Of a stretch of 64,000 nt of DNA, positions 10,485 to 19,257 are shown piece after piece; position 1 is the first letter of the stretch; each line of letters opens with the position of its first letter. The position numbers were made by a program, and so were the translations under genes. The notes below the pieces were generated by a model, which saw only the letters and a list, made by a program, of their open reading frames with translations, ran no database searches and was not told the origin of the DNA. Source of the stretch: Escherichia coli (lineage in GTDB: Bacteria; Pseudomonadota; Gammaproteobacteria; Enterobacterales; Enterobacteriaceae); the NCBI RefSeq assembly GCF_016903815.1, contig NZ_CP069973.1, one strand, 5' to 3'.

Positions 10485-10920
10485 GTGACAGCCGTATTGT
10501 GGCCCTCATCGGGCCACTTTTCGCCATCAGCCTTTTCTTTAAAGACATATTATCTTTGTATCATTTCTGATAGTTAACATTACAAGATATAAGTAATGGA
10601 CGCACTCCCAATTAGTCTATTTAAATCGCCACGAGTTTAACTGACAACCCATGATCAATTATGAATTGCAACTATTTCTGTAGTCACTTTTGTGGGGACA
10701 GTCCACAAAACTGCCAACTTCCGCTTCTTGCTCTTAGCGGACATTAGCATAGGCTATTTACCATAACGCCTCATTACGCGCACCGCCCAGACTGACTCAG
10801 CGCGTTTCTGGCATATCCCCGGTAAAACAAGTAACAAACCACCCGAAAATGAACACCAGAAACGCGACTTAAGAATCTACCCTATGAATGGATATGCACT
10901 CAACCGAATCGATCTTGGTT

Positions 10921-12234
10921 TCAATCTTTTTTATCGGGATCAGGCTTCTTTTTAGGTAACTTCGGGGGCTTAACTTGCTGATGACTTTGCGTTCGGCGCG
11001 TAAGCCAGGGATGGTCAGCTTTAGGTTTAACATAGTATTTTGAGCGTAAATCAATACGGGCATTATCCACTCGTTCATGGACACTCTTTTCATCATCCAG
11101 TGGTATAGGCTCCGGGCCATCAACATACTTTTCCCAGCCCAGCGCTTTCCCGTCATACAGAACGTTAATTTCACCGTCAAAGTTCTCGCATACAGTAACA
11201 ACCGAATGCCTAAGTCGATATCCCCGGCCCTCACTGCGTACCTGAAACGCACTGCTTTTGTACTGGAAAGTGAGATTTTTAGACAGAACGCGCTTCGCCT
11301 GTAGGCTGAAGATATAACCCAGTTCCTCTTCAGAATGGTGCACATCAAGATGAGCATTATCAGTAGTACGAGGCGACGTAGCGAACCGGTTGTTATAGGC
11401 TTCAATAAAGGTCGGCAACCATGCATTTGCTGTTTCAATATCACTGATATTCTGAAGCCGCATTTCTTTGACCAGCCTGTCCTGTAGTGTCTGATTGGCG
11501 CGCTCTACCCGCCCTTTTGCCTGCGGGCTGTTGGCATGGATTGGCTCGATGCCCAGTGTCTTTATCGCACGAGTGAACTGGGTCAGCTCACCTTCCCGCT
11601 CTGGGTTATTTACCCTGAATATACTGTGTCTATCAGAGTAGAGAGCGAGCGGTACGCCATGATCATTAAGGTAACCCCGGAGGGTTTCCATGTAAGCCCG
11701 GGTTGTTTCAGCAGGCACAAAACGCAACGCCATCAACGCACTGGTGGCATCATCAATGAAAACGATCAGTGTACATCTGGGGCCTCGATTTTCAAACCAG
11801 TCATGAGGTGAGCCATCAATCTGGATCAGTTCACCGTAAGATGGTCGTCGCATGCGGCGTTGATATATACGGGCAATTTTACGACGGCGTTCACGCCATA
11901 ACCCCTCTTCTATCATCCACTTTCTGAGAGTTTCAACGGATAAAGATAAACCGTGTATCTCGCGCAATTTTTCGCACGCAAACGTAGGTCCAAAATCAGC
12001 GTAACGGCCTTTGAGGAGTGAAATTACTGTTGCTCTGAATTCAGTAGAAAAGGAATTATTAGGACGCTTTCCACGTCGGTGGGAAACCAGACCAGAAGGC
12101 CCTTCATTTCTATACCGTTGCACCAGACGTTTAACCTGCCGAATAGAAATGCCAATGCGTGCCGCAGCTTGTTCCTGAATAATCTGAAGTCGGTGGAGTT
12201 CCTTATGACTCATCGTAACAGTCTCTTTGATCAT
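10921..12234 (-). CDS. DDE transposase with N-terminal HTH and rve-type integrase core (IS481/ISNCY-like, family unresolved)
   Basis: 437-aa ORF; the rve/RNase-H-type core is inferred from the overall layout of the protein (segments such as IQIDGSPHDW, LIVFIDDATS, ALYSDRHSIF) and was not verified by a profile search; alternative start at 12213 (MSHKEL). Confidence 0.8.
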   Translation of the reverse strand: MIKETVTMSHKELHRLQIIQEQAAARIGISIRQVKRLVQRYRNEGPSGLVSHRRGKRPNNSFSTEFRATVISLLKGRYADFGPTFACEKLREIHGLSLSVETLRKWMIEEGLWRERRRKIARIYQRRMRRPSYGELIQIDGSPHDWFENRGPRCTLIVFIDDATSALMALRFVPAETTRAYMETLRGYLNDHGVPLALYSDRHSIFRVNNPEREGELTQFTRAIKTLGIEPIHANSPQAKGRVERANQTLQDRLVKEMRLQNISDIETANAWLPTFIEAYNNRFATSPRTTDNAHLDVHHSEEELGYIFSLQAKRVLSKNLTFQYKSSAFQVRSEGRGYRLRHSVVTVCENFDGEINVLYDGKALGWEKYVDGPEPIPLDDEKSVHERVDNARIDLRSKYYVKPKADHPWLTRRTQSHQQVKPPKLPKKKPDPDKKD

Positions 12235-12451
12235 GAAAAATCCCCCAGAGAATTGTCTGGGGACATTTTAGAATGGTTCAAAGGGGACATTACAGCTTGG
12301 TGTTAACAATAGCCTGCTTCTCCGTGCCTTTCGGCACGTAAGAGGCTAACCTACATGTGTCTAGCATGAAATTGGCCTCAGATTAATGTTAAGCGTCTTG
12401 CAGGACGCGTAATGTTAACTGGGGCTTTTCTCTATCTGCCTTTGGTGTTCG

Positions 12452-12481
12452 TGCCCGAGGCAGATAGCCTCAAGCACCCGC
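12452..12481 (+). repeat. Direct repeat copy A flanking the kwaAB-like cassette
   Basis: TGCCCGAGGCAGATAGCCTCAAGCACCCGC; 14-nt core CCTCAAGCACCCGC identical to copy B at 14487-14500; preceded by inverted repeat CTATCTGCC/GGCAGATAG. Confidence 0.6.
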
Positions 12482-12717
12482 CGTGATTCTACAAAAACAT
12501 TACCCACCTTTCCAGCAATTCACAACAACTCCATGCAAATAGTAAGTAGAATAATAAGTTATTAGTATTAGCAATTTACTTAGTTTCTAATTTGTGCCAA
12601 TGATTTTCATTTTTGCATGAAAAATACCTTAACATTTTATATTTACTTACTATTTGTAAGCCCCATCAGTTCTTTCTGATGGCGGCTGGTATTTCAGTTC
12701 CAGATATAGTATATGCT

Positions 12718-13746
12718 TTACGCCTTAATAGGGTTAATCACATTTCCGCTATCCGTACCATAGTATTTTTTTGTAGTCATGCCTTGTTTATAATAATCAT
12801 TTAACAGTTTGAGAAAGTTTCTTCCTTGCCTCTCATCTTCTATGACTAATTTACCATGCTCATTGGTCTTAAACTCTTCGTTCTGAAACATTTTTAGCAC
12901 ATCATTCATAGCTTGAACATCATTCTTTTCCAGAACCGTATGGTTACCTTTCTCAGCGATATGAGTGAGAATTTTTCTCAGTGATGGCTTATGAAGAATA
13001 GCTTGTTCAATAACATCTAAACCTTCAATAAGATCAAGTTCTTTAATTGTATTTAATGTTTTTTGTGCAGCTTCTGTAAACTCAACCTCCAAGCCTACAA
13101 TAGCCTCAAAACTTTTCTTATGAAATACATAAAATTGATCTTTTATATAAATACAATCGATTTTGTCATCAAAATTGACTGCGCTGCCATCAAATGATCT
13201 TAACTCTTTATCTGTTTTATCAAACAAAGCGAATACGCGCTGAGTCATATTTTGTGGTTCATTTGTTGTGACTTTCCCCCTGCTGATTTTTCGGAAAGAA
13301 TAAGTGACGTCAGCCCCCTTTTGGACTTTAATACAATAGGCCCACAAATCATTCTGAACCTCAGCAAGAGAGGTAAGTACAACTGGTTTATCATTCTTTA
13401 TATCGTTATTAATAACTTTTGAAAACGATATCGCGTTATTCATAGCATAGGCATAAATTTTATTATCAATATCATCATCAATAACAGTATGCTTTTTCAT
13501 CACAATATCATCTTTCGAAGCATGAGAAATAATCTGGTTTGATAAAGTATACTTAAAAAATTTAGCAATATCTGGAGCGATTGGAGCTTTAATGATTTTA
13601 AAATCGAATTTATCAACAACTCTTGCGGTTCTACTCATACCCGCTTTAAGATGTCTAGTAATGAAATACAACGATATTTTCGCCGCATCATCATCCTTAA
13701 GTTGCTCAGCATACTCTAATAATTCTTCAAGCTTTAACATTTTCAT
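12718..13746 (-). CDS. Soluble 342-aa protein, candidate Kiwa KwaB-like (DUF4868-like) defense component
   Basis: Second gene of an AT-rich two-gene operon, 4-nt overlap with the upstream membrane-protein gene; family assignment by architecture only. Confidence 0.55.
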   Translation of the reverse strand: MKMLKLEELLEYAEQLKDDDAAKISLYFITRHLKAGMSRTARVVDKFDFKIIKAPIAPDIAKFFKYTLSNQIISHASKDDIVMKKHTVIDDDIDNKIYAYAMNNAISFSKVINNDIKNDKPVVLTSLAEVQNDLWAYCIKVQKGADVTYSFRKISRGKVTTNEPQNMTQRVFALFDKTDKELRSFDGSAVNFDDKIDCIYIKDQFYVFHKKSFEAIVGLEVEFTEAAQKTLNTIKELDLIEGLDVIEQAILHKPSLRKILTHIAEKGNHTVLEKNDVQAMNDVLKMFQNEEFKTNEHGKLVIEDERQGRNFLKLLNDYYKQGMTTKKYYGTDSGNVINPIKA

Positions 13747-14357
13747 TCCTTATGGGATTCAGCATAAAAAAGTTTTGGGCCCACGTCCTCAACATCAAGA
13801 AGATCATCTTCCTCCAAATACTTTGATTTAGTCAAAACCATACCAGTGCGTTTTTTGTCGCTTTCTAAATCCAAATATGTAACTTGATATAAAGTATAAT
13901 TAATACTTATTGTAGGATTTATAAGTATCATGCTTGAATTAATATATATTAAAGCCGTTACCGTTAACAATATTGCTATAGGTATAACATTAGTTAAAGT
14001 GGATAGATCCTGAAATACAAACGGAATTATATATGTAAAAAGATAGCTTATTGATTCATTGTTTTTATTTTCAATATCTATAACTCTTACAGTTCTACCA
14101 CTAGTGGCGCATCGACGTTTTATATTTTTTAAAAAAATTGTTAATCCTACAATACCAAATAATGATAATACACCAATGACACTGACCGCGCCAAAGTATT
14201 TAAAGAAAATAGTTAATGATTCAACACTTATACCTTTCCAATTTAAATAGCTTCTATAAGTATACAATTGCACAAAACACATGATAAAGAATAGGGGAAG
14301 GTATGACACTATAAATAGCGAAACTCTAGCACCTAAATGTAGTTTATTTACTCTCAT
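13743..14357 (-). CDS. Four-helix integral membrane protein, candidate Kiwa KwaA-like
   Basis: 204 aa with four hydrophobic segments (about residues 12-32, 55-76, 103-115, 125-140) and an acidic C-terminal tail; -10-like TAAAAT about 30 nt upstream. Confidence 0.55.
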   Translation of the reverse strand: MRVNKLHLGARVSLFIVSYLPLFFIMCFVQLYTYRSYLNWKGISVESLTIFFKYFGAVSVIGVLSLFGIVGLTIFLKNIKRRCATSGRTVRVIDIENKNNESISYLFTYIIPFVFQDLSTLTNVIPIAILLTVTALIYINSSMILINPTISINYTLYQVTYLDLESDKKRTGMVLTKSKYLEEDDLLDVEDVGPKLFYAESHKE

Positions 14358-14470
14358 AACTACCCCACAGCCTACACGTCTAGTATTTTATGTTATTTCG
14401 AATAATTATGCATCAGATTACCATCCTACAATTGTGCATAAAACGAGCATTTTGCTGATTTTTCTGCGGA

Positions 14471-14500
14471 TGCCTGAGACAGACAACCTCAAGCACCCGC
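14471..14500 (+). repeat. Direct repeat copy B flanking the kwaAB-like cassette
   Basis: TGCCTGAGACAGACAACCTCAAGCACCCGC, about 80 percent identical to copy A over 30 bp, same orientation. Confidence 0.6.
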
Positions 14501-14565
14501 AGCAATTTTACTTAACTCCCGCTACCTCGCCAATATGAAATCAATAAGAAAGGTGCTCCATAAAA

Positions 14566-15252
14566 TCACTCCTTCTCTTCTTTATCGTAGTGGAGTTGAC
14601 CAATTTTGATAAGAGGGCGTCCCTGAGATTTGCGGTGTAGATTGGTATCGCGCAGAGAATACACACAGCCACAATATTCCTGCTGATAGAATTTTTCGCG
14701 CTTGCTGATTTCAATCATGCGGGACGAGCCGCCCTGCTTGCGCCAGTTATAATCCCAGTACACCATGCCCGGATAATGCGCGACGGCTCGCCGCCCACAG
14801 TCGTTAACCTGCTGCATATTTTTCCAGCGTGAAATGCCCAGTGAACTGCTGATCACACTGAAACCATTTTCAGCAGCGTACAGCGCTGTCCGCTCAAAAC
14901 GCATGTCAAAACACATGGTACAACGGATCCCCCTCTCGGGCTCCCATTCCATTCCTTTGGCACGTTCAAACCAGTTGTCTGTGTCGTAATCAGCATCAAT
15001 AAATGGCACGCCGTGTTGTTCAGCAAAGCGAATATTCTCATCCTTACGAATTAAATACTCTTTCTGAGGATGAATGTTCGGGTTGTAGAAAAAGATGGTA
15101 TAGTCGATTCTCGAGGCCTGAAGTGCCTCCATCACTTCACCGGAACATGGAGCACAGCAAGAGTGCAGTAGTAGTTTGTTTGCCCCGTTTGGGAGCTCCA
15201 ATTTAGGCCGTTTGAAATCAGCAATAGTCATAAATATTTTTATTGGGGTCAT
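14566..15252 (-). CDS. QueH-like (DUF208) epoxyqueuosine-reductase homolog
   Basis: N-terminal [11 protein letters not shown] motif plus further conserved Cys (CTMC, CGC); alternative start at 15231. Confidence 0.65.
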
Positions 15253-15433
15253 AAAAATAGCACAGAGTGTGGCATCAGAGCAGGGCTATCGGGAATAGAT
15301 GTCTAAATCTGGTAATATCTGCTTTTGACGCATAGCAGACAACCACGCTAGCTCAATCCTGTGCCGTGAAAATGTCAATTCACATCTGAACTAATGCTCT
15401 TTAATCTAGTTACGTCTATAAATAACGAAAATT

Positions 15434-15832
15434 TCACTGATAAAATGCCAGTATGCGCTGCATAACTTCGCTCTTCCGGCACTCACAGCAAATTATGTTT
15501 TGGTGCCTGTCATAACGACGTATTTCTCCGTCAGGTAATGACCAGATAAGGTCCGGATCAACCACAGATGTTTTCTTCACCTTTGCCCTCGAGAGTTTTT
15601 TGCGGGCGTTTTGCCAGTCCTTACGAGCCTGTTCAGACGGGAATAACCCGTAGCCAGAGTTATATACATCACCACTGGCAACCAGCTCTCTGGCGAGAAC
15701 GCTCATCAGATATCTTGTCGCACCTGTCTTGGCTTCCAGTTGCCGTAACGTCTCGCGCCCACTCCGGCGTACTAGCTCAACAACCTGCCCCTTGATTTTT
15801 TCCCGCTCTTCTTGTGTAAAAACTTTTGCCAC
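15434..15832 (-). CDS. Hypothetical prophage early protein (132 aa)
   Basis: ORF downstream of the replication gene on the same strand; CCxC motif near the C-terminus. Confidence 0.45.
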   Translation of the reverse strand: MAKVFTQEEREKIKGQVVELVRRSGRETLRQLEAKTGATRYLMSVLARELVASGDVYNSGYGLFPSEQARKDWQNARKKLSRAKVKKTSVVDPDLIWSLPDGEIRRYDRHQNIICCECRKSEVMQRILAFYQ

Positions 15833-15872
15833 AAGTCCCCCTTAAAATTACCTCATGACCTGAAATCAAAAC

Positions 15873-16892
15873 TTATCCTCTGAAACCAGGCGGAATTTCT
15901 GTATCCGGTTCAGAAATATGATTAACACAACGCTGTACAGGTGAACGCCCCAGGCGGATGACCAGTTCGTCCCATTTTTCGCGGAGCTTTGACGGGCTCA
16001 TGATGTTTTTTACCCAGAATGGATCCCGCTGTACCCGACCAAACATTTCACAAATTTGTCTGTGACTTCTGCCATCCAGCATCCGCATTGTGCGCACATC
16101 ATTGGCCCAGACAGTCCAGTTAGGCTCTTTTGGTCGCATGATCTCGCCATCATCACTGGCGGCCTGTTCGTAGAGACCCACGATCCGCCCCCATATCCAC
16201 TGCGCACACGCCAGATCCTCCTGGCTACCCCACTGGCGTTTTTTCGCACTAAACACAACTGCGCCAGGGTGCCGGATTAAAAAATCCTGTTCAGCCGTCT
16301 GCGGGTCCGGTTGCGAAGCTTCCGGACGAAAAGTGTTTTTATTCTCTGTAGTAATCTCTGTTGTATTCTCTGTAGGATCATCGGGCCATTTTGACCCGAT
16401 GACATTGGGTCGTTTTGAACCAATGGAGCGTTTCATTTTGACCTCTTCCATCGTGTCATTTTGACCTGATGGAGCGGCGCATTTTGAACCGATGGATTCG
16501 CTCAATTTGCCATCATCTAAAAGCTCGCTCCCATAGTTAATCGTGTAGAAATTGGTCATATCGCGCTTTGATTTATTGAGCTTTTCACAACGCAAAAGCC
16601 CCAGCGTTTTCAGACTTGCAAACGCGCGCTTTAACGTTGACTCTGACCAGAATGGGAACTGTTCCAGCCATTGTTCCGTTGTGTTGTAAATCCAGCGAAC
16701 ACCATCACATTCCATGCCGGAATTGGTATCTCTCAACCAGTAATGCAACTGCTGCAACACAATGGCTTCATTTAAGCCAATCTTCATCGCAAGCTGTGTG
16801 TTTATAACCAGTGGGCGTTCAGCAAAAAGAAGGCTCATAATTCCATCCAGCTTTTTGTTGGTATTGCTGTCGATACGCAAGCTTGAAAGCAA
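15873..16892 (-). CDS. Phage replication initiator (lambda O-like)
   Basis: 339-aa ORF with HTH-like N-terminal domain; central IGSK repeats encoded by DNA iterons; start codon uncertain. Confidence 0.65.
   Translation of the reverse strand: MLSSLRIDSNTNKKLDGIMSLLFAERPLVINTQLAMKIGLNEAIVLQQLHYWLRDTNSGMECDGVRWIYNTTEQWLEQFPFWSESTLKRAFASLKTLGLLRCEKLNKSKRDMTNFYTINYGSELLDDGKLSESIGSKCAAPSGQNDTMEEVKMKRSIGSKRPNVIGSKWPDDPTENTTEITTENKNTFRPEASQPDPQTAEQDFLIRHPGAVVFSAKKRQWGSQEDLACAQWIWGRIVGLYEQAASDDGEIMRPKEPNWTVWANDVRTMRMLDGRSHRQICEMFGRVQRDPFWVKNIMSPSKLREKWDELVIRLGRSPVQRCVNHISEPDTEIPPGFRG
16330..16520. repeat. Candidate phage origin: five to six iterons (consensus about CATTTTGACCYGATGG) plus adjacent ATTCTCTGTAG repeats, inside the O-like gene
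   Basis: Tandem near-repeats at roughly 20-24-bp spacing between 16385 and 16520, AT-rich repeats at 16340-16378. Confidence 0.6.
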
Positions 16893-17340
16893 TTGCTTTT
16901 TCTATAAGTTCGTCAGTTTCACGATCCACTACGGCAGGATCAGCAAAAAGCAGTCCGGACTCCACCACATCGCCATATTCTTTGTTTAACCCGGCGATCA
17001 TGCACGTGATGCTTTTTCCGTCAGTAATTTCACGATACAACCTGAAATCACTAATCCGGATAGCCTCCATAATCGCAGGCACTAGCGCCGTGAACTTTTC
17101 ACGCTTATCCCTGGTGTCGATAGCCTTCCAGCGTTCGAATATCTTCACTCGATTAACGCCAAGCGCTCGCTGATCAACCGCGCCACCTTCATCTGTGACA
17201 CGCTGAACATCGATGTTCGGGCGCTCTTTCAAAGCCCAGAATGCTTCAGTGATTAATATCGTCGCCTGCTCCTGTGTCATTCCTGGTCGACATATCCAGG
17301 CATCCAGAGCCTCACGAGCCTGTTCAGGAGTGATTTTCAT
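16819..17340 (-). CDS. Hypothetical early protein in the cII position (173 aa)
   Basis: ORF between the cro-like dicC and the O-like gene; function not recognisable. Confidence 0.45.
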   Translation of the reverse strand: MKITPEQAREALDAWICRPGMTQEQATILITEAFWALKERPNIDVQRVTDEGGAVDQRALGVNRVKIFERWKAIDTRDKREKFTALVPAIMEAIRISDFRLYREITDGKSITCMIAGLNKEYGDVVESGLLFADPAVVDRETDELIEKAIAFKLAYRQQYQQKAGWNYEPSFC

Positions 17341-17554
17341 TGTTCAACCGCCCCGCCCGCTTCGTCTTACGATATTCATCATAAACTTTGGGATCATACT
17401 GAAGCTCCCCGCCAGATGCCTCCTGTAGACGCATCGCGCGACCTTCAGGAACCAGTATCCCCCAAGCAGCAACACTTGCCAGCCTCACTCCTGCGGCATT
17501 GGCAAGCTTTGTTTTGCTGCCAAAAAAAGTAATTGCGTCAACTTTAAGCATCAA
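17324..17554 (-). CDS. dicC: Cro-like repressor DicC
   Basis: 76-aa ORF divergent from dicA; sequence recalled as DicC. Confidence 0.75.
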   Translation of the reverse strand: MMLKVDAITFFGSKTKLANAAGVRLASVAAWGILVPEGRAMRLQEASGGELQYDPKVYDEYRKTKRAGRLNNENHS

Positions 17555-19199: not shown

Positions 19200-19257
19200 T
19201 TTCTGGTGACGTTTGGCGGTATCAGTTTTACTCCGTGACTGCTCTGCCGCCGTTTTT
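19200..19257 (+). ncRNA. dicF: DicF small regulatory RNA
   Basis: TTTCTGGTGACGTTTGGCGGTATCAGTTTTACTCCGTGACTGCTCTGCCGCC followed by a T-tract, matching recalled DicF. Confidence 0.85.

Follow-up and report, generated by a model that had tools for sequence, protein, structure and literature searches.

Transposases of the IS1202 family of insertion sequences (ISs) combine a helix-turn-helix (HTH) domain with a DDE catalytic domain, in which two extra conserved aspartates lie between the first D and the second, and a glutamine lies seven residues past the E (Siguier et al.). These transposases are similar to TnsB, and the elements that encode them carry, close to either end, a further internal transposase site (PMC10132070). 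Depending on the subgroup, members of the family duplicate 5-6, 15-17 or 27-28 bp of their target. One member, ISEsa1, is described as 1609 bp long, with terminal inverted repeats (TIRs) that match at 15 of 22 positions, no target-site duplication (TSD) and no target found; it is grouped with ISCARN112 as 'no TSD', apart from the ISTde1 subgroup (PMC10132070). The element considered here lies in a 64,000-nt stretch of Escherichia coli DNA (the window; contig NZ_CP069973.1 of assembly GCF_016903815.1) and includes an ISEsa1-like transposase gene, tnp. Comparative sequence analysis indicates that window positions 9035-12308 are very probably a whole IS1202-family unit transposon with cargo, inserted by transposition at the start codon of the type I toxin gene hok. 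The mobile unit is 3274 bp long with the minus strand as its sense strand, and its order is left inverted repeat (IRL), hairpin and 5' untranslated region (UTR), tnp, a cer-type site, flxA, ydfV, relB, relE and right inverted repeat (IRR).

The closest described element is ISEsa1 itself, compared here by its annotated name and its published length and TIR values. The DNA of tnp is identical, save for a 9-aa deletion, to that encoding WP_004196353.1, which the Prokaryotic Genome Annotation Pipeline (PGAP) calls 'IS1202-like element ISEsa1 family transposase', and the likeness extends to the HTH plus DDE architecture, the 5' UTR and the sequence next to tnp. Whereas ISEsa1 was published as 1609 bp with 15/22 inverted repeats (IRs) and neither duplication nor target (PMC10132070), the elements described here are 3.3-12.8 kb long, have 19/26 IRs, are flanked by 15-16-bp duplications at toxin start codons and carry cargo. 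The ISTde1 subgroup of the IS1202 family resembles them in its TGT ends and its direct repeats of 15-17 bp, but neither target specificity nor plasmid copies are reported for it (Siguier et al. preprint). In the ISAba32/ISAjo2 subgroup, a single protein also directs orientation-specific insertion at a fixed distance from a recognised site, with repeated and tandem insertions. That subgroup, however, inserts 5 bp from the XerC arm of dif or pdif with duplications of 5-6 bp, while here the targets are hok and ldr initiation regions, the duplications are 15-16 bp and a cer site is internal to the element.

Cargo between the transposase gene and the right IR is also found in transporter ISs and passenger unit transposons such as ISKpn21. 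Tn3-family transposons are known to carry toxin-antitoxin (TA) modules, and the addiction module is likewise integral here, as relBE in the window and as a ParE-type pair in a lineage with 80% identity. Both the ISKpn21-type and the Tn3-family elements differ in transposase family and target; here the TA module occupies the right-hand extremity of the element, and the insertion itself brings a second (type I) toxin gene under the relBE operon. Tn7, with its TnsB-type transposase and its insertion at attTn7, is like this element in having TGT/ACA ends with several transposase sites in each, and in inserting in one orientation at a set distance from a recognised sequence. Unlike Tn7, the element has no TnsA, TnsC or TnsD, it duplicates 15-16 bp where Tn7 duplicates 5 bp, and its tandem copies give no sign of target immunity. 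Searches of the open literature for IS1202, ISEsa1, hokD/relBE/transposon and ncrY, made without ISfinder or TnCentral, found no description of the transposon or its target. The gene family is already known; what appears to be new is how far the element really extends, how long a duplication it makes, that it is specific for the start sites of type I toxins, and the part it played in creating relB-relE-hokD.

Ends of the element and its target

The ends and the TSD were defined by comparison with genomes that lack the insertion, a check that had been proposed in a preliminary description of this DNA made from its letters alone. An empty-site query, consisting of the window sequence minus 3274 bp and one repeat copy, aligned without a break to 40 complete E. 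coli genomes, with 100% coverage and up to 99.6% identity (three single-nucleotide differences in 732 bp). The gene order in these 40 genomes is rem, hokD, intact leader and KwaB. In the window, the hok/sok leader is not contiguous with hokD, and the 3274-bp transposon lies between them. In intact hok, GGAGAAGCAGGCTAT is followed by GAAGCAG, and in the window the same 15 bp are followed by TGTTAACACCAAGCTGTAATGTCCCC; the 15-bp direct repeats are flush with both IR tips. The junctions place the insertion between the T and the G of the hok start codon, with duplication of the 15 bp that run from the Shine-Dalgarno (SD) sequence to the AT of ATG. The leader half, with the candidate hok promoter, sok and a truncated mok, now lies at the IRL, and the hokD open reading frame (ORF), with its own SD and ATG, at the IRR. 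As the alignments show, the insertion yields the gene order relB-relE-hokD.

The preliminary description could define no TIRs, and within 10500-12420, the span that it covered, there are none. The partner of the left IR lies 1.4 kb beyond that span; the two repeats match at 19 of 26 positions (21 of 28 if extended), with the ends TGTTAAC... and ...GTTGACA. Positions 9035-9060 are the sole match to the IRL with seven or fewer mismatches in the 64 kb; this match is inverted and lies between relE and hokD, and shuffled sequences gave one hit in 20. The features of IS1202 family ends, namely TGT...ACA termini, imperfect 24-26-bp TIRs and internal sites, are found at 9035-12308 and not at boundaries 1.6 kb apart. 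The internal direct repeat near the IRL is probably a second transposase-binding site. The IRL tip also abuts DNA other than hok in four further copies (L011, L036, L057 and L074).

An inverted match with a GTTAAC core, noted earlier as the only one, was found again as AGTTAACATTAC at 10572-10583 and 12409-12420, and a search for inverted repeats within 10480-12720 gave no other long match than this 12-nt pair. Considered as a candidate pair of element ends, it was judged to be a chance match; its arms fall within the cargo and within the hok/sok leader, respectively, neither is an end of the element, and by estimate about 0.15 such inverted 12-mers are expected by chance in the span. The IRR tip (9035-9040) is a perfect -35 hexamer, TTGACA, and the IRL holds TAATGT at 12287-12292, 16 nt from its tip. 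It is a speculative suggestion that the two ends, abutted with a 0-2-bp spacer in a circular intermediate, would create a sigma-70 promoter, in the manner of copy-out-paste-in ISs; a search for circle junctions, with the IRR abutting the IRL, found tandem insertions 15 bp apart and no circles.

The target is the type I toxin locus hok/sok. An Rfam match to RF01794 (sok) at 12308-12479 on the minus strand scores 105.6 bits (gathering threshold 59) and covers model positions 1-157 of 157. The terminal AUG of this model is the hok start codon and falls exactly at the transposon junction, and the candidate hok promoter lies just upstream of the 5' end of the match. The plasmid equivalent of the mok-like ORF is annotated by PGAP as 'DUF5431 family protein'. 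Unusually long non-coding flanks had been remarked on either side of tnp, and they measure 436 bp and 483 bp. The length is real, but these are not unexplained spacers; the right flank consists of the IRL and the complete hok/sok leader, and the left one of the cer-type Xer site and cargo.

Table 1. Positions in the window of the transposon, its target locus and the adjoining Kiwa system.
Feature	Coordinates	Strand	Basis or remark
hokD ORF, 3' half of split target, now downstream of relBE	8866-9021	-	Contiguous with leader in 40 empty-site genomes
TSD, right copy, GGAGAAGCAGGCTAT	9020-9034	-	With G9019 gives hokD SD and ATG
IRR terminal 26 nt, GGTGACACTTCTGCTTTGCGTTGACA-3' on sense strand, TGTCAACGCAAAGCAGAAGTGTCACC on plus strand	9035-9060 (IRR region 9035-9085)	-	IR match
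IRR subterminal site, CATGACATCTCTGTTTCGC	9067-9085	-	Homologous to two-site right end of simple IS relatives
relE	9093-9380	-	ORF call, PGAP
relB (type II antitoxin, paired with relE)	9380-9619	-	ORF call, PGAP
ydfV, cargo, truncated in other cargo variants	9644-9949	+	PGAP annotation
flxA, cargo	10152-10484	+	Pfam FlxA, PGAP; within IR-bounded unit in window and in copy L078
Palindromic motif GCTAATGTCCGC...GCGGAAGTT, edge of conserved tnp-cer module	10716-10748	-	Variable cargo diverges from here between copies
cer-type Xer multimer-resolution site, overlaps tnp 3' end	10756-10940	-	Plasmid matches, ColE1 cer alignment
Transposase gene tnp, 437 aa	10921-12234	-	ORF call, domains, signature
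Hairpin UCCCCAGA/UCUGGGGG and AUUUUUC directly 5' of AUG	12235-12263	-	Folding, terminator scan
Subterminal 19-nt direct repeat of inner IRL (ACCATTCTAAAATGTCCCC vs ACCAAGCTGTAATGTCCCC at 12283-12301)	12259-12277	-	Repeat search
IRL, TGTTAACACCAAGCTGTAATGTCCCC, tip TGT at 12308	12283-12308	-	Intact-hok homology ends exactly at tip
Truncated mok-like ORF, 25 codons, starts in hok leader, stops at TAA within IRL	12290-12367	-	ORF coordinates
TSD, left copy, GGAGAAGCAGGCTAT, hok SD to AT of ATG	12309-12323	-	Single copy in empty site
Complete hok/sok leader, 5' half of split target, with sok antisense-RNA region	12309-12479	-	Rfam, hok alignment
Candidate hok promoter TGGAAA-17-TAGAAT, part of target locus, reads toward IRL and tnp	12486-12514	-	Promoter scan
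Kiwa system, KwaB 342 aa and KwaA 204 aa, outside transposon, beside hok leader	12718-14357	-	Pfam, NCBIfam

Transposase, cargo and other copies

The ORF, which is uninterrupted, had been recognised as the 437-aa HTH and DDE transposase gene of a mobile element, which it is, but it had been left unclassified and treated as the element's single ORF. Its product has N-terminal HTH_28/29/32 domains and an rve_3 domain in Pfam, and it matches the NCBIfam equivalog NF033594 (transpos_ISNCY_2) with 456 bits (cutoff 250; E = 7e-137) over positions 7-365 of the 368-position profile. It retains the whole DDE/DD/Q catalytic signature (D140, D161-D162, D201, E244 and Q251). Model homology and the HTH plus DDE/DD/Q signature place the protein in the IS1202 family, with the first HTH truncated, and PGAP gives identical genes the ISEsa1 family name. 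Comparison with the profile and with other copies shows the ORF to be the transposase of an IS1202-family (ISNCY / IS1202 group) unit transposon, and the unit that moved holds tnp, flxA, ydfV, relB, relE and the cer site. PGAP splits the ORF in two, into an 'ISNCY family / IS1202-like ISEsa1 family transposase' pseudogene and ydfW; in both the PGAP and the K-12 annotation, ydfW is the last 49 codons of tnp, in frame, at 10921-11070.

Plasmid copies encode the 446-aa protein WP_004196353.1, and the window gene differs from theirs by a 27-bp in-frame deletion between 12172 and 12173, with loss of nine residues (SINRHITQE). The deletion is flanked by 11-nt imperfect direct repeats (ATTATTCAGGA / ATTACTCAGGA). 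In the intact 446-aa protein, HTH_28 covers profile positions 1-52 with 46.8 bits, and in the window protein it covers only positions 16-52 with 32.4 bits, so that helix 1 of the first HTH is lost. Because of this loss, the window copy is probably non-autonomous; its ends are intact and could be mobilised in trans. The deletion is polymorphic among copies at the Qin site, where both 3274-bp and 3301-bp versions occur. The deletion is also present in copy L024, in another context; as that copy is a mosaic with a window-type 5' end, the deletion may have reached it by recombination or may have recurred independently.

The genes relBE adjoin the IRR in every complete copy examined gene by gene. 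Between relBE and tnp, the cer-type site has an Xer core GGTGCGCGTAA-TGAGGCG-TTATGGTAAAT at 10756-10784, in which the XerD arm agrees with its ColE1 cer counterpart at every position and the central region, as parsed here, is 7 bp against 8 bp in cer. The accessory region, to about 10940, aligns with ColE1 cer and includes an ARG-box-like sequence, GTGCATATCCATTCATAGGG, at 10880-10899. A cer-type site consists of a XerC arm, a central region, a XerD arm and some 180 bp of accessory DNA that includes an ArgR box; by its sequence the region is such a site, and it has matches of 80-90% in more than 1500 small or mobilizable plasmids.

Complete copies, several of them with other cargo, were found on plasmids and in metagenome contigs. 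An Enterobacter IncF plasmid (L078) carries a 3301-bp copy with the 15-bp duplication GGAGAAGAAGGCCAT, and a Phytobacter IncF plasmid (L079) carries a 12,843-bp copy between psiA and hok with the 15-bp duplication GGAGAAGTCAGCTAT. The latter has the order tnp-cer, ncrABCY, chrBA (nickel and chromium resistance) and other genes, then relBE. Examples of intact copies are those of NZ_CP096189.1 (3301 bp) and NZ_AP018757.1 (12.8 kb). Metagenome contigs L019, L022 and L028 carry copies of 3304, 4237 and 4600 bp, respectively, with 16-bp duplications; the cargo is a CDF transporter in L028 and other genes in L022. The 15 bp of the window, L078 and L079 and the 16 bp of L019, L022, L028 and the more distant L100-L102 fit a subgroup-typical length. 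The IRL adjoins no fewer than eight different hok-leader alleles, in one and the same orientation each time, and the duplications in independent insertions match the local hok allele of each. Comparison of the copies shows the same backbone, with varying cargo, at the exact position and orientation in many hok alleles. An exact-pattern scan of genome contigs gave four loci. Several copies (L003, L006, L016 and others) are interrupted or flanked by ISKpn8, ISKpn38, IS1, ISSen4-like or IS481-like elements, and a 'type 3' right flank (TGTGAGTTCAAC...) proved to be another IS inserted into the element and was set aside as uninformative.

The sequence pattern of target choice is shown by these alignments, and two arrangements bear on its presumed mechanism. 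In L084 (NZ_CP085771.1, locus 3258-17530), a 12.8-kb copy lies directly upstream of a second element of a different lineage, head to tail, with one 15-bp repeat between them. Elsewhere, a 16-nt duplication includes the end of an IS481-like element that has replaced the hok ORF. As insertion works with the hok ORF replaced by an IS481-like end or by the IRL of another copy, the recognition determinant would be on the leader side, and the tandem copies argue against target immunity and for repeated targeting of one hok leader.

More distant relatives extend the pattern. Copies with 87% (L091) and 80% (L085-L087) aa identity have IRL sequences that differ from that of the window and occupy the same hok position; L085 sits behind psiB-psiA. 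The 80% lineage carries a ParE-type TA in place of relBE, with the ParE/RelE-type pair on the opposite strand in L085 and L082. A cer-like site is likewise present in L082, L085-L087 and L094-L095 (80-81% aa identity), and L094 has MFS and NUDIX cargo and a cer core nearly identical to that of ColE1 (GGTGCGTACAA-TTAGAGCG-TTATGGTAAAT). A relative with 76% aa identity (L088), on a Salmonella enterica chromosome (CP019410.1, locus 7900-9500) next to bcsG, is a simple IS of about 1.46 kb, and the 15-bp duplication that flanks it, CAAGGCGGCTATATG, has the start codon of an Ldr type I toxin at its end. Like window positions 9035-9085, to which it is homologous, the right end of this IS has two sites. 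The hok and ldr targets share a loose candidate motif about 40 bp upstream of the insertion, TAGCC...TGCC...GCA.AAGG. Relatives with 61-62% identity, from environmental bacteria, are simple ISs with 16-bp duplications at unrelated sites. Across L096-L102 the duplications are 15-16 bp; L098 and L099 have one junction each, paired with that of L097, and L100-L102 have 16 bp. As this comparison shows at the level of sequence, duplications of 15-16 bp are common to the clade, and it is the enterobacterial branch that has gained cargo and a specificity for the start sites of type I toxins.

Two other origins of the block were weighed against transposition of the whole unit. It could be that the mobile element is a stand-alone 1.6-kb IS, ISEsa1 as listed, at about 10713-12294, and that relBE, flxA and hokD are unrelated prophage genes. 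The published entry (1609 bp, TIR 15/22, no TSD; PMC10132070), the many plasmid matches that share just 10716-12379 and the palindromic, IR-like motif at 10716-10748 all speak for such an element. The right end of ISEsa1 in ISfinder would be this palindromic region, judging from the length and TIR values; by calculation, TGTAATGTCCGC... at that position against TGTAATGTCCCC... would give exactly 15/22 and 1609 bp. However, the left tip is at 12308 rather than 12294; the 14 nt TGTTAACACCAAGC accompany the element to places where its flank is not hok, and intact hok loci do not have them. Duplications at the 1.6-kb boundaries are seen in none of the copies, every complete copy shows a matching duplication of 15-16 bp at the distal IRR, and what the empty site lacks is precisely 9035-12308 and a single repeat. 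The same right flank (flxA or ncrY) is found with many hok-leader alleles on the left, which is impossible for a transposing 1.6-kb IS. It is hence very improbable that the 1.6-kb unit is what moved. A right end at 10713-10727 was considered and rejected; the boundary is blurred among plasmid and metagenome copies, whose flanks are weakly similar there, and it is the cargo junction. A TSD-like or hok-remnant reading just beyond 10727 was unsubstantiated and was dropped.

It is slightly less probable still that the block tnp-cer-flxA-ydfV-relBE was joined to hokD by site-specific (Xer- or att-like) or homologous recombination with the 15-bp repeats as cores, even with a cer-type Xer site inside the block and related IS1202-family elements that associate with Xer sites. 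The repeats vary by site and match the local hok allele on both sides, as expected of a target duplication and not of an element-borne core; the two-site TGT...ACA ends are homologous to those of simple IS relatives that make 15-16-bp duplications at unrelated sites; and the boundaries of the block are some 1.7 kb and 1.5 kb away from the cer core. Some points count against targeted transposition of the 3274-bp unit. The IRL flanks are not hok in the four copies named above, so that hok specificity is strong yet not absolute, or these copies are rearranged. The flanks of L037 are mismatched, which is best explained by recombination between two copies. The published ends of ISEsa1 would have to be mis-set, and transposition, target recognition and the function of the hairpin are all read from comparative anatomy.

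The hairpin upstream of the transposase start codon

A hairpin followed by a U-tract had been reported just upstream of the tnp start codon, with the proposal that it blocks read-through or occludes the ribosome-binding site (RBS). The hairpin is present, with arms CCCCAGA (12243-12249) and TCTGGGG (12256-12262) in a structure that spans 12242-12263, and the coding strand reads UCCCCAGA-caauuc-UCUGGGGG, then AUUUUUC and AUG. Folding gives a minimum free energy (MFE) of -14.7 kcal/mol (z about -2.1). The end of the putative subterminal transposase-binding repeat (AAAATGTCCCC) forms the 5' arm, the 3' arm holds the SD (GGGGGA), and the U-run can pair with AAAAU of the repeat. When the 5' UTRs of seven lineages (61-100% aa identity) were folded singly, UCCCC paired with the G-rich SD in each, with z-scores between -1.5 and -4.9 and with inner pairs and loops that varied by lineage. 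Since SD pairing recurs in all seven lineages, RBS occlusion or an operator is favoured over termination. A promoter scan found no sigma-70-like promoter in the IRL; the candidate hok promoter is about 250 nt upstream on the same strand. The element appears always to lie downstream of, and co-oriented with, a hok promoter, and the hairpin most likely keeps transposase translation low on transcripts that would read through from it. A transposase operator on the DNA could act instead or as well. The relative L082 (80%) was uninformative for the hairpin comparison, as its 5' end is degenerate.

Of the two roles first proposed, then, RBS occlusion remains a plausible limit on transposase expression, and termination is the weaker option. 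An intrinsic terminator that halts hok-promoter read-through before the tnp start is the least supported reading and is doubtful. A scan does flag the hairpin as terminator-like, with eight pairs, five of them G-C, and the tail AUUUUUC, the co-oriented hok promoter upstream would give such a terminator something to stop, and the 87% lineage L091 has UAUUUUUC after the stem. However, three of the seven lineages (L088, L100 and L096) have no U-run behind their equivalent of the hairpin, and the U-run of the window has just five U residues, with AUG immediately after; in the MFE fold it pairs with the upstream AAAAU, giving an extended stem and no free tail. Such motifs are also not rare here, as 2.3 kb contain four terminator-like sites and shuffled sequences 1.8 +/- 1.5, and the hairpin alone is of modest significance. 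Somewhat less unlikely, though still tentative, is the reading of the inverted symmetry as a third, inverted copy of the transposase-binding motif, forming a DNA operator over the SD and start codon for autorepression. The 3' arm of L091, GGGGATATTTT, matches the reverse complement of the binding motif GGGGACATTT at 10 of 11 positions, L094 and L085 carry GGATATTTC, the window sequence GGGGGATTTTT matches at 8 of 11, and extra internal transposase sites near the ends are described for the IS1202 family. The match in L088 is poor (6 of 11), however, and the inner stem changes with pairing kept (AGA/UCU in the window, G/C in L091, UG/CG in L088), which is expected of an RNA helix and not of a half-site; binding at the inverted motif is itself a prediction. 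Several observations limit the case for an RNA role of the hairpin. RNAalifold on the seven 5' UTRs gave a consensus that is weak (-1.35 kcal/mol) because the helix register shifts between lineages. Conservation in close lineages is confounded by the overlapping transposase-binding sites; the first 113 nt are identical in two lineages that differ by 8.4% overall, but this segment is mostly IR, so that it does not support the hairpin independently. A DNA operator would explain the inverted symmetry just as well as an RNA hairpin would.

Prophage context and consequences of the insertion

The gene order of the window is that of a Qin-type prophage, with cspB/F, ydfT/U, rem, hokD, relBE, ydfV, flxA, KwaB/KwaA, queH, dicC/dicA and DicF. 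Rfam matches elsewhere in the window (1463-1848, 4645-4768, 5070-5462 and 19201-19252), to two cspA thermoregulator leaders, STnc490 and DicF, are consistent with such a prophage. The Kiwa genes were identified by Pfam KwaB (60.7 bits) and by NCBIfam KwaA, the latter with 81 bits, which is below the model cutoff. An association of the transposase with this defense cassette had been suspected. The transposon, however, occurs on many plasmids that lack Kiwa, and Kiwa in the 40 empty-site genomes lies beside an intact, transposon-less hok/sok; the adjacency is incidental, as the hok/sok target happens to adjoin Kiwa in a Qin-type prophage. In a related prophage (L009), an alpha/beta hydrolase gene occupies the position of Kiwa, which suggests a variable hotspot beside hok.

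The genome of K-12 MG1655 is 99.95% identical to window positions 6747-11105 and resumes at 17061, with a 5955-bp deletion (11106-17060) between. It retains the right arm of the transposon, comprising ydfW (the 3' remnant of tnp), cer, flxA, ydfV, relBE, the IRR, the duplication and hokD. The deletion took the IRL, most of tnp including its N-terminal part, the hok/sok leader, Kiwa, queH, DUF977 and replication-like genes. In K-12, hokD is known as the third gene of the relBE operon, without a leader of its own. The hok leader was split off by the insertion and then deleted, and this accounts for a K-12 hokD that lacks it. An origin can thus be given for the relB-relE-hokD operon, flxA, ydfV and the pseudogene ydfW of K-12, as the right arm of a transposon.

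For the family, the catalogued ISEsa1 would be redefined as a transposase module, belonging to transposons that carry cargo and duplicate 15-16 bp of their target. Type I toxin start regions would be a second kind of target for site- and orientation-specific insertion by a single protein in the IS1202 family, after the Xer sites of the ISAba32 group, and a single-protein transposase with a defined target could serve targeted insertion. The element would also be a vehicle that spreads nickel and chromium resistance and stability functions (relBE and cer) into plasmid hok/sok loci. It is a conjecture, and on present evidence an improbable one, that the enterobacterial branch of IS1202 evolved recognition of hok and ldr leader-initiation regions and exploits them for transposase expression and for the rewiring of Hok under relBE. 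If it is true, transposase expression would ride on the promoter and the antisense-controlled leader of the toxin, damped by the SD-sequestering hairpin. The transposase would then be under Sok control or, in IncF leading regions, transiently on upon plasmid entry to a new cell, and with Hok under the relBE operon of the element, relBE, hok and cer would form a self-stabilising cassette for plasmids.

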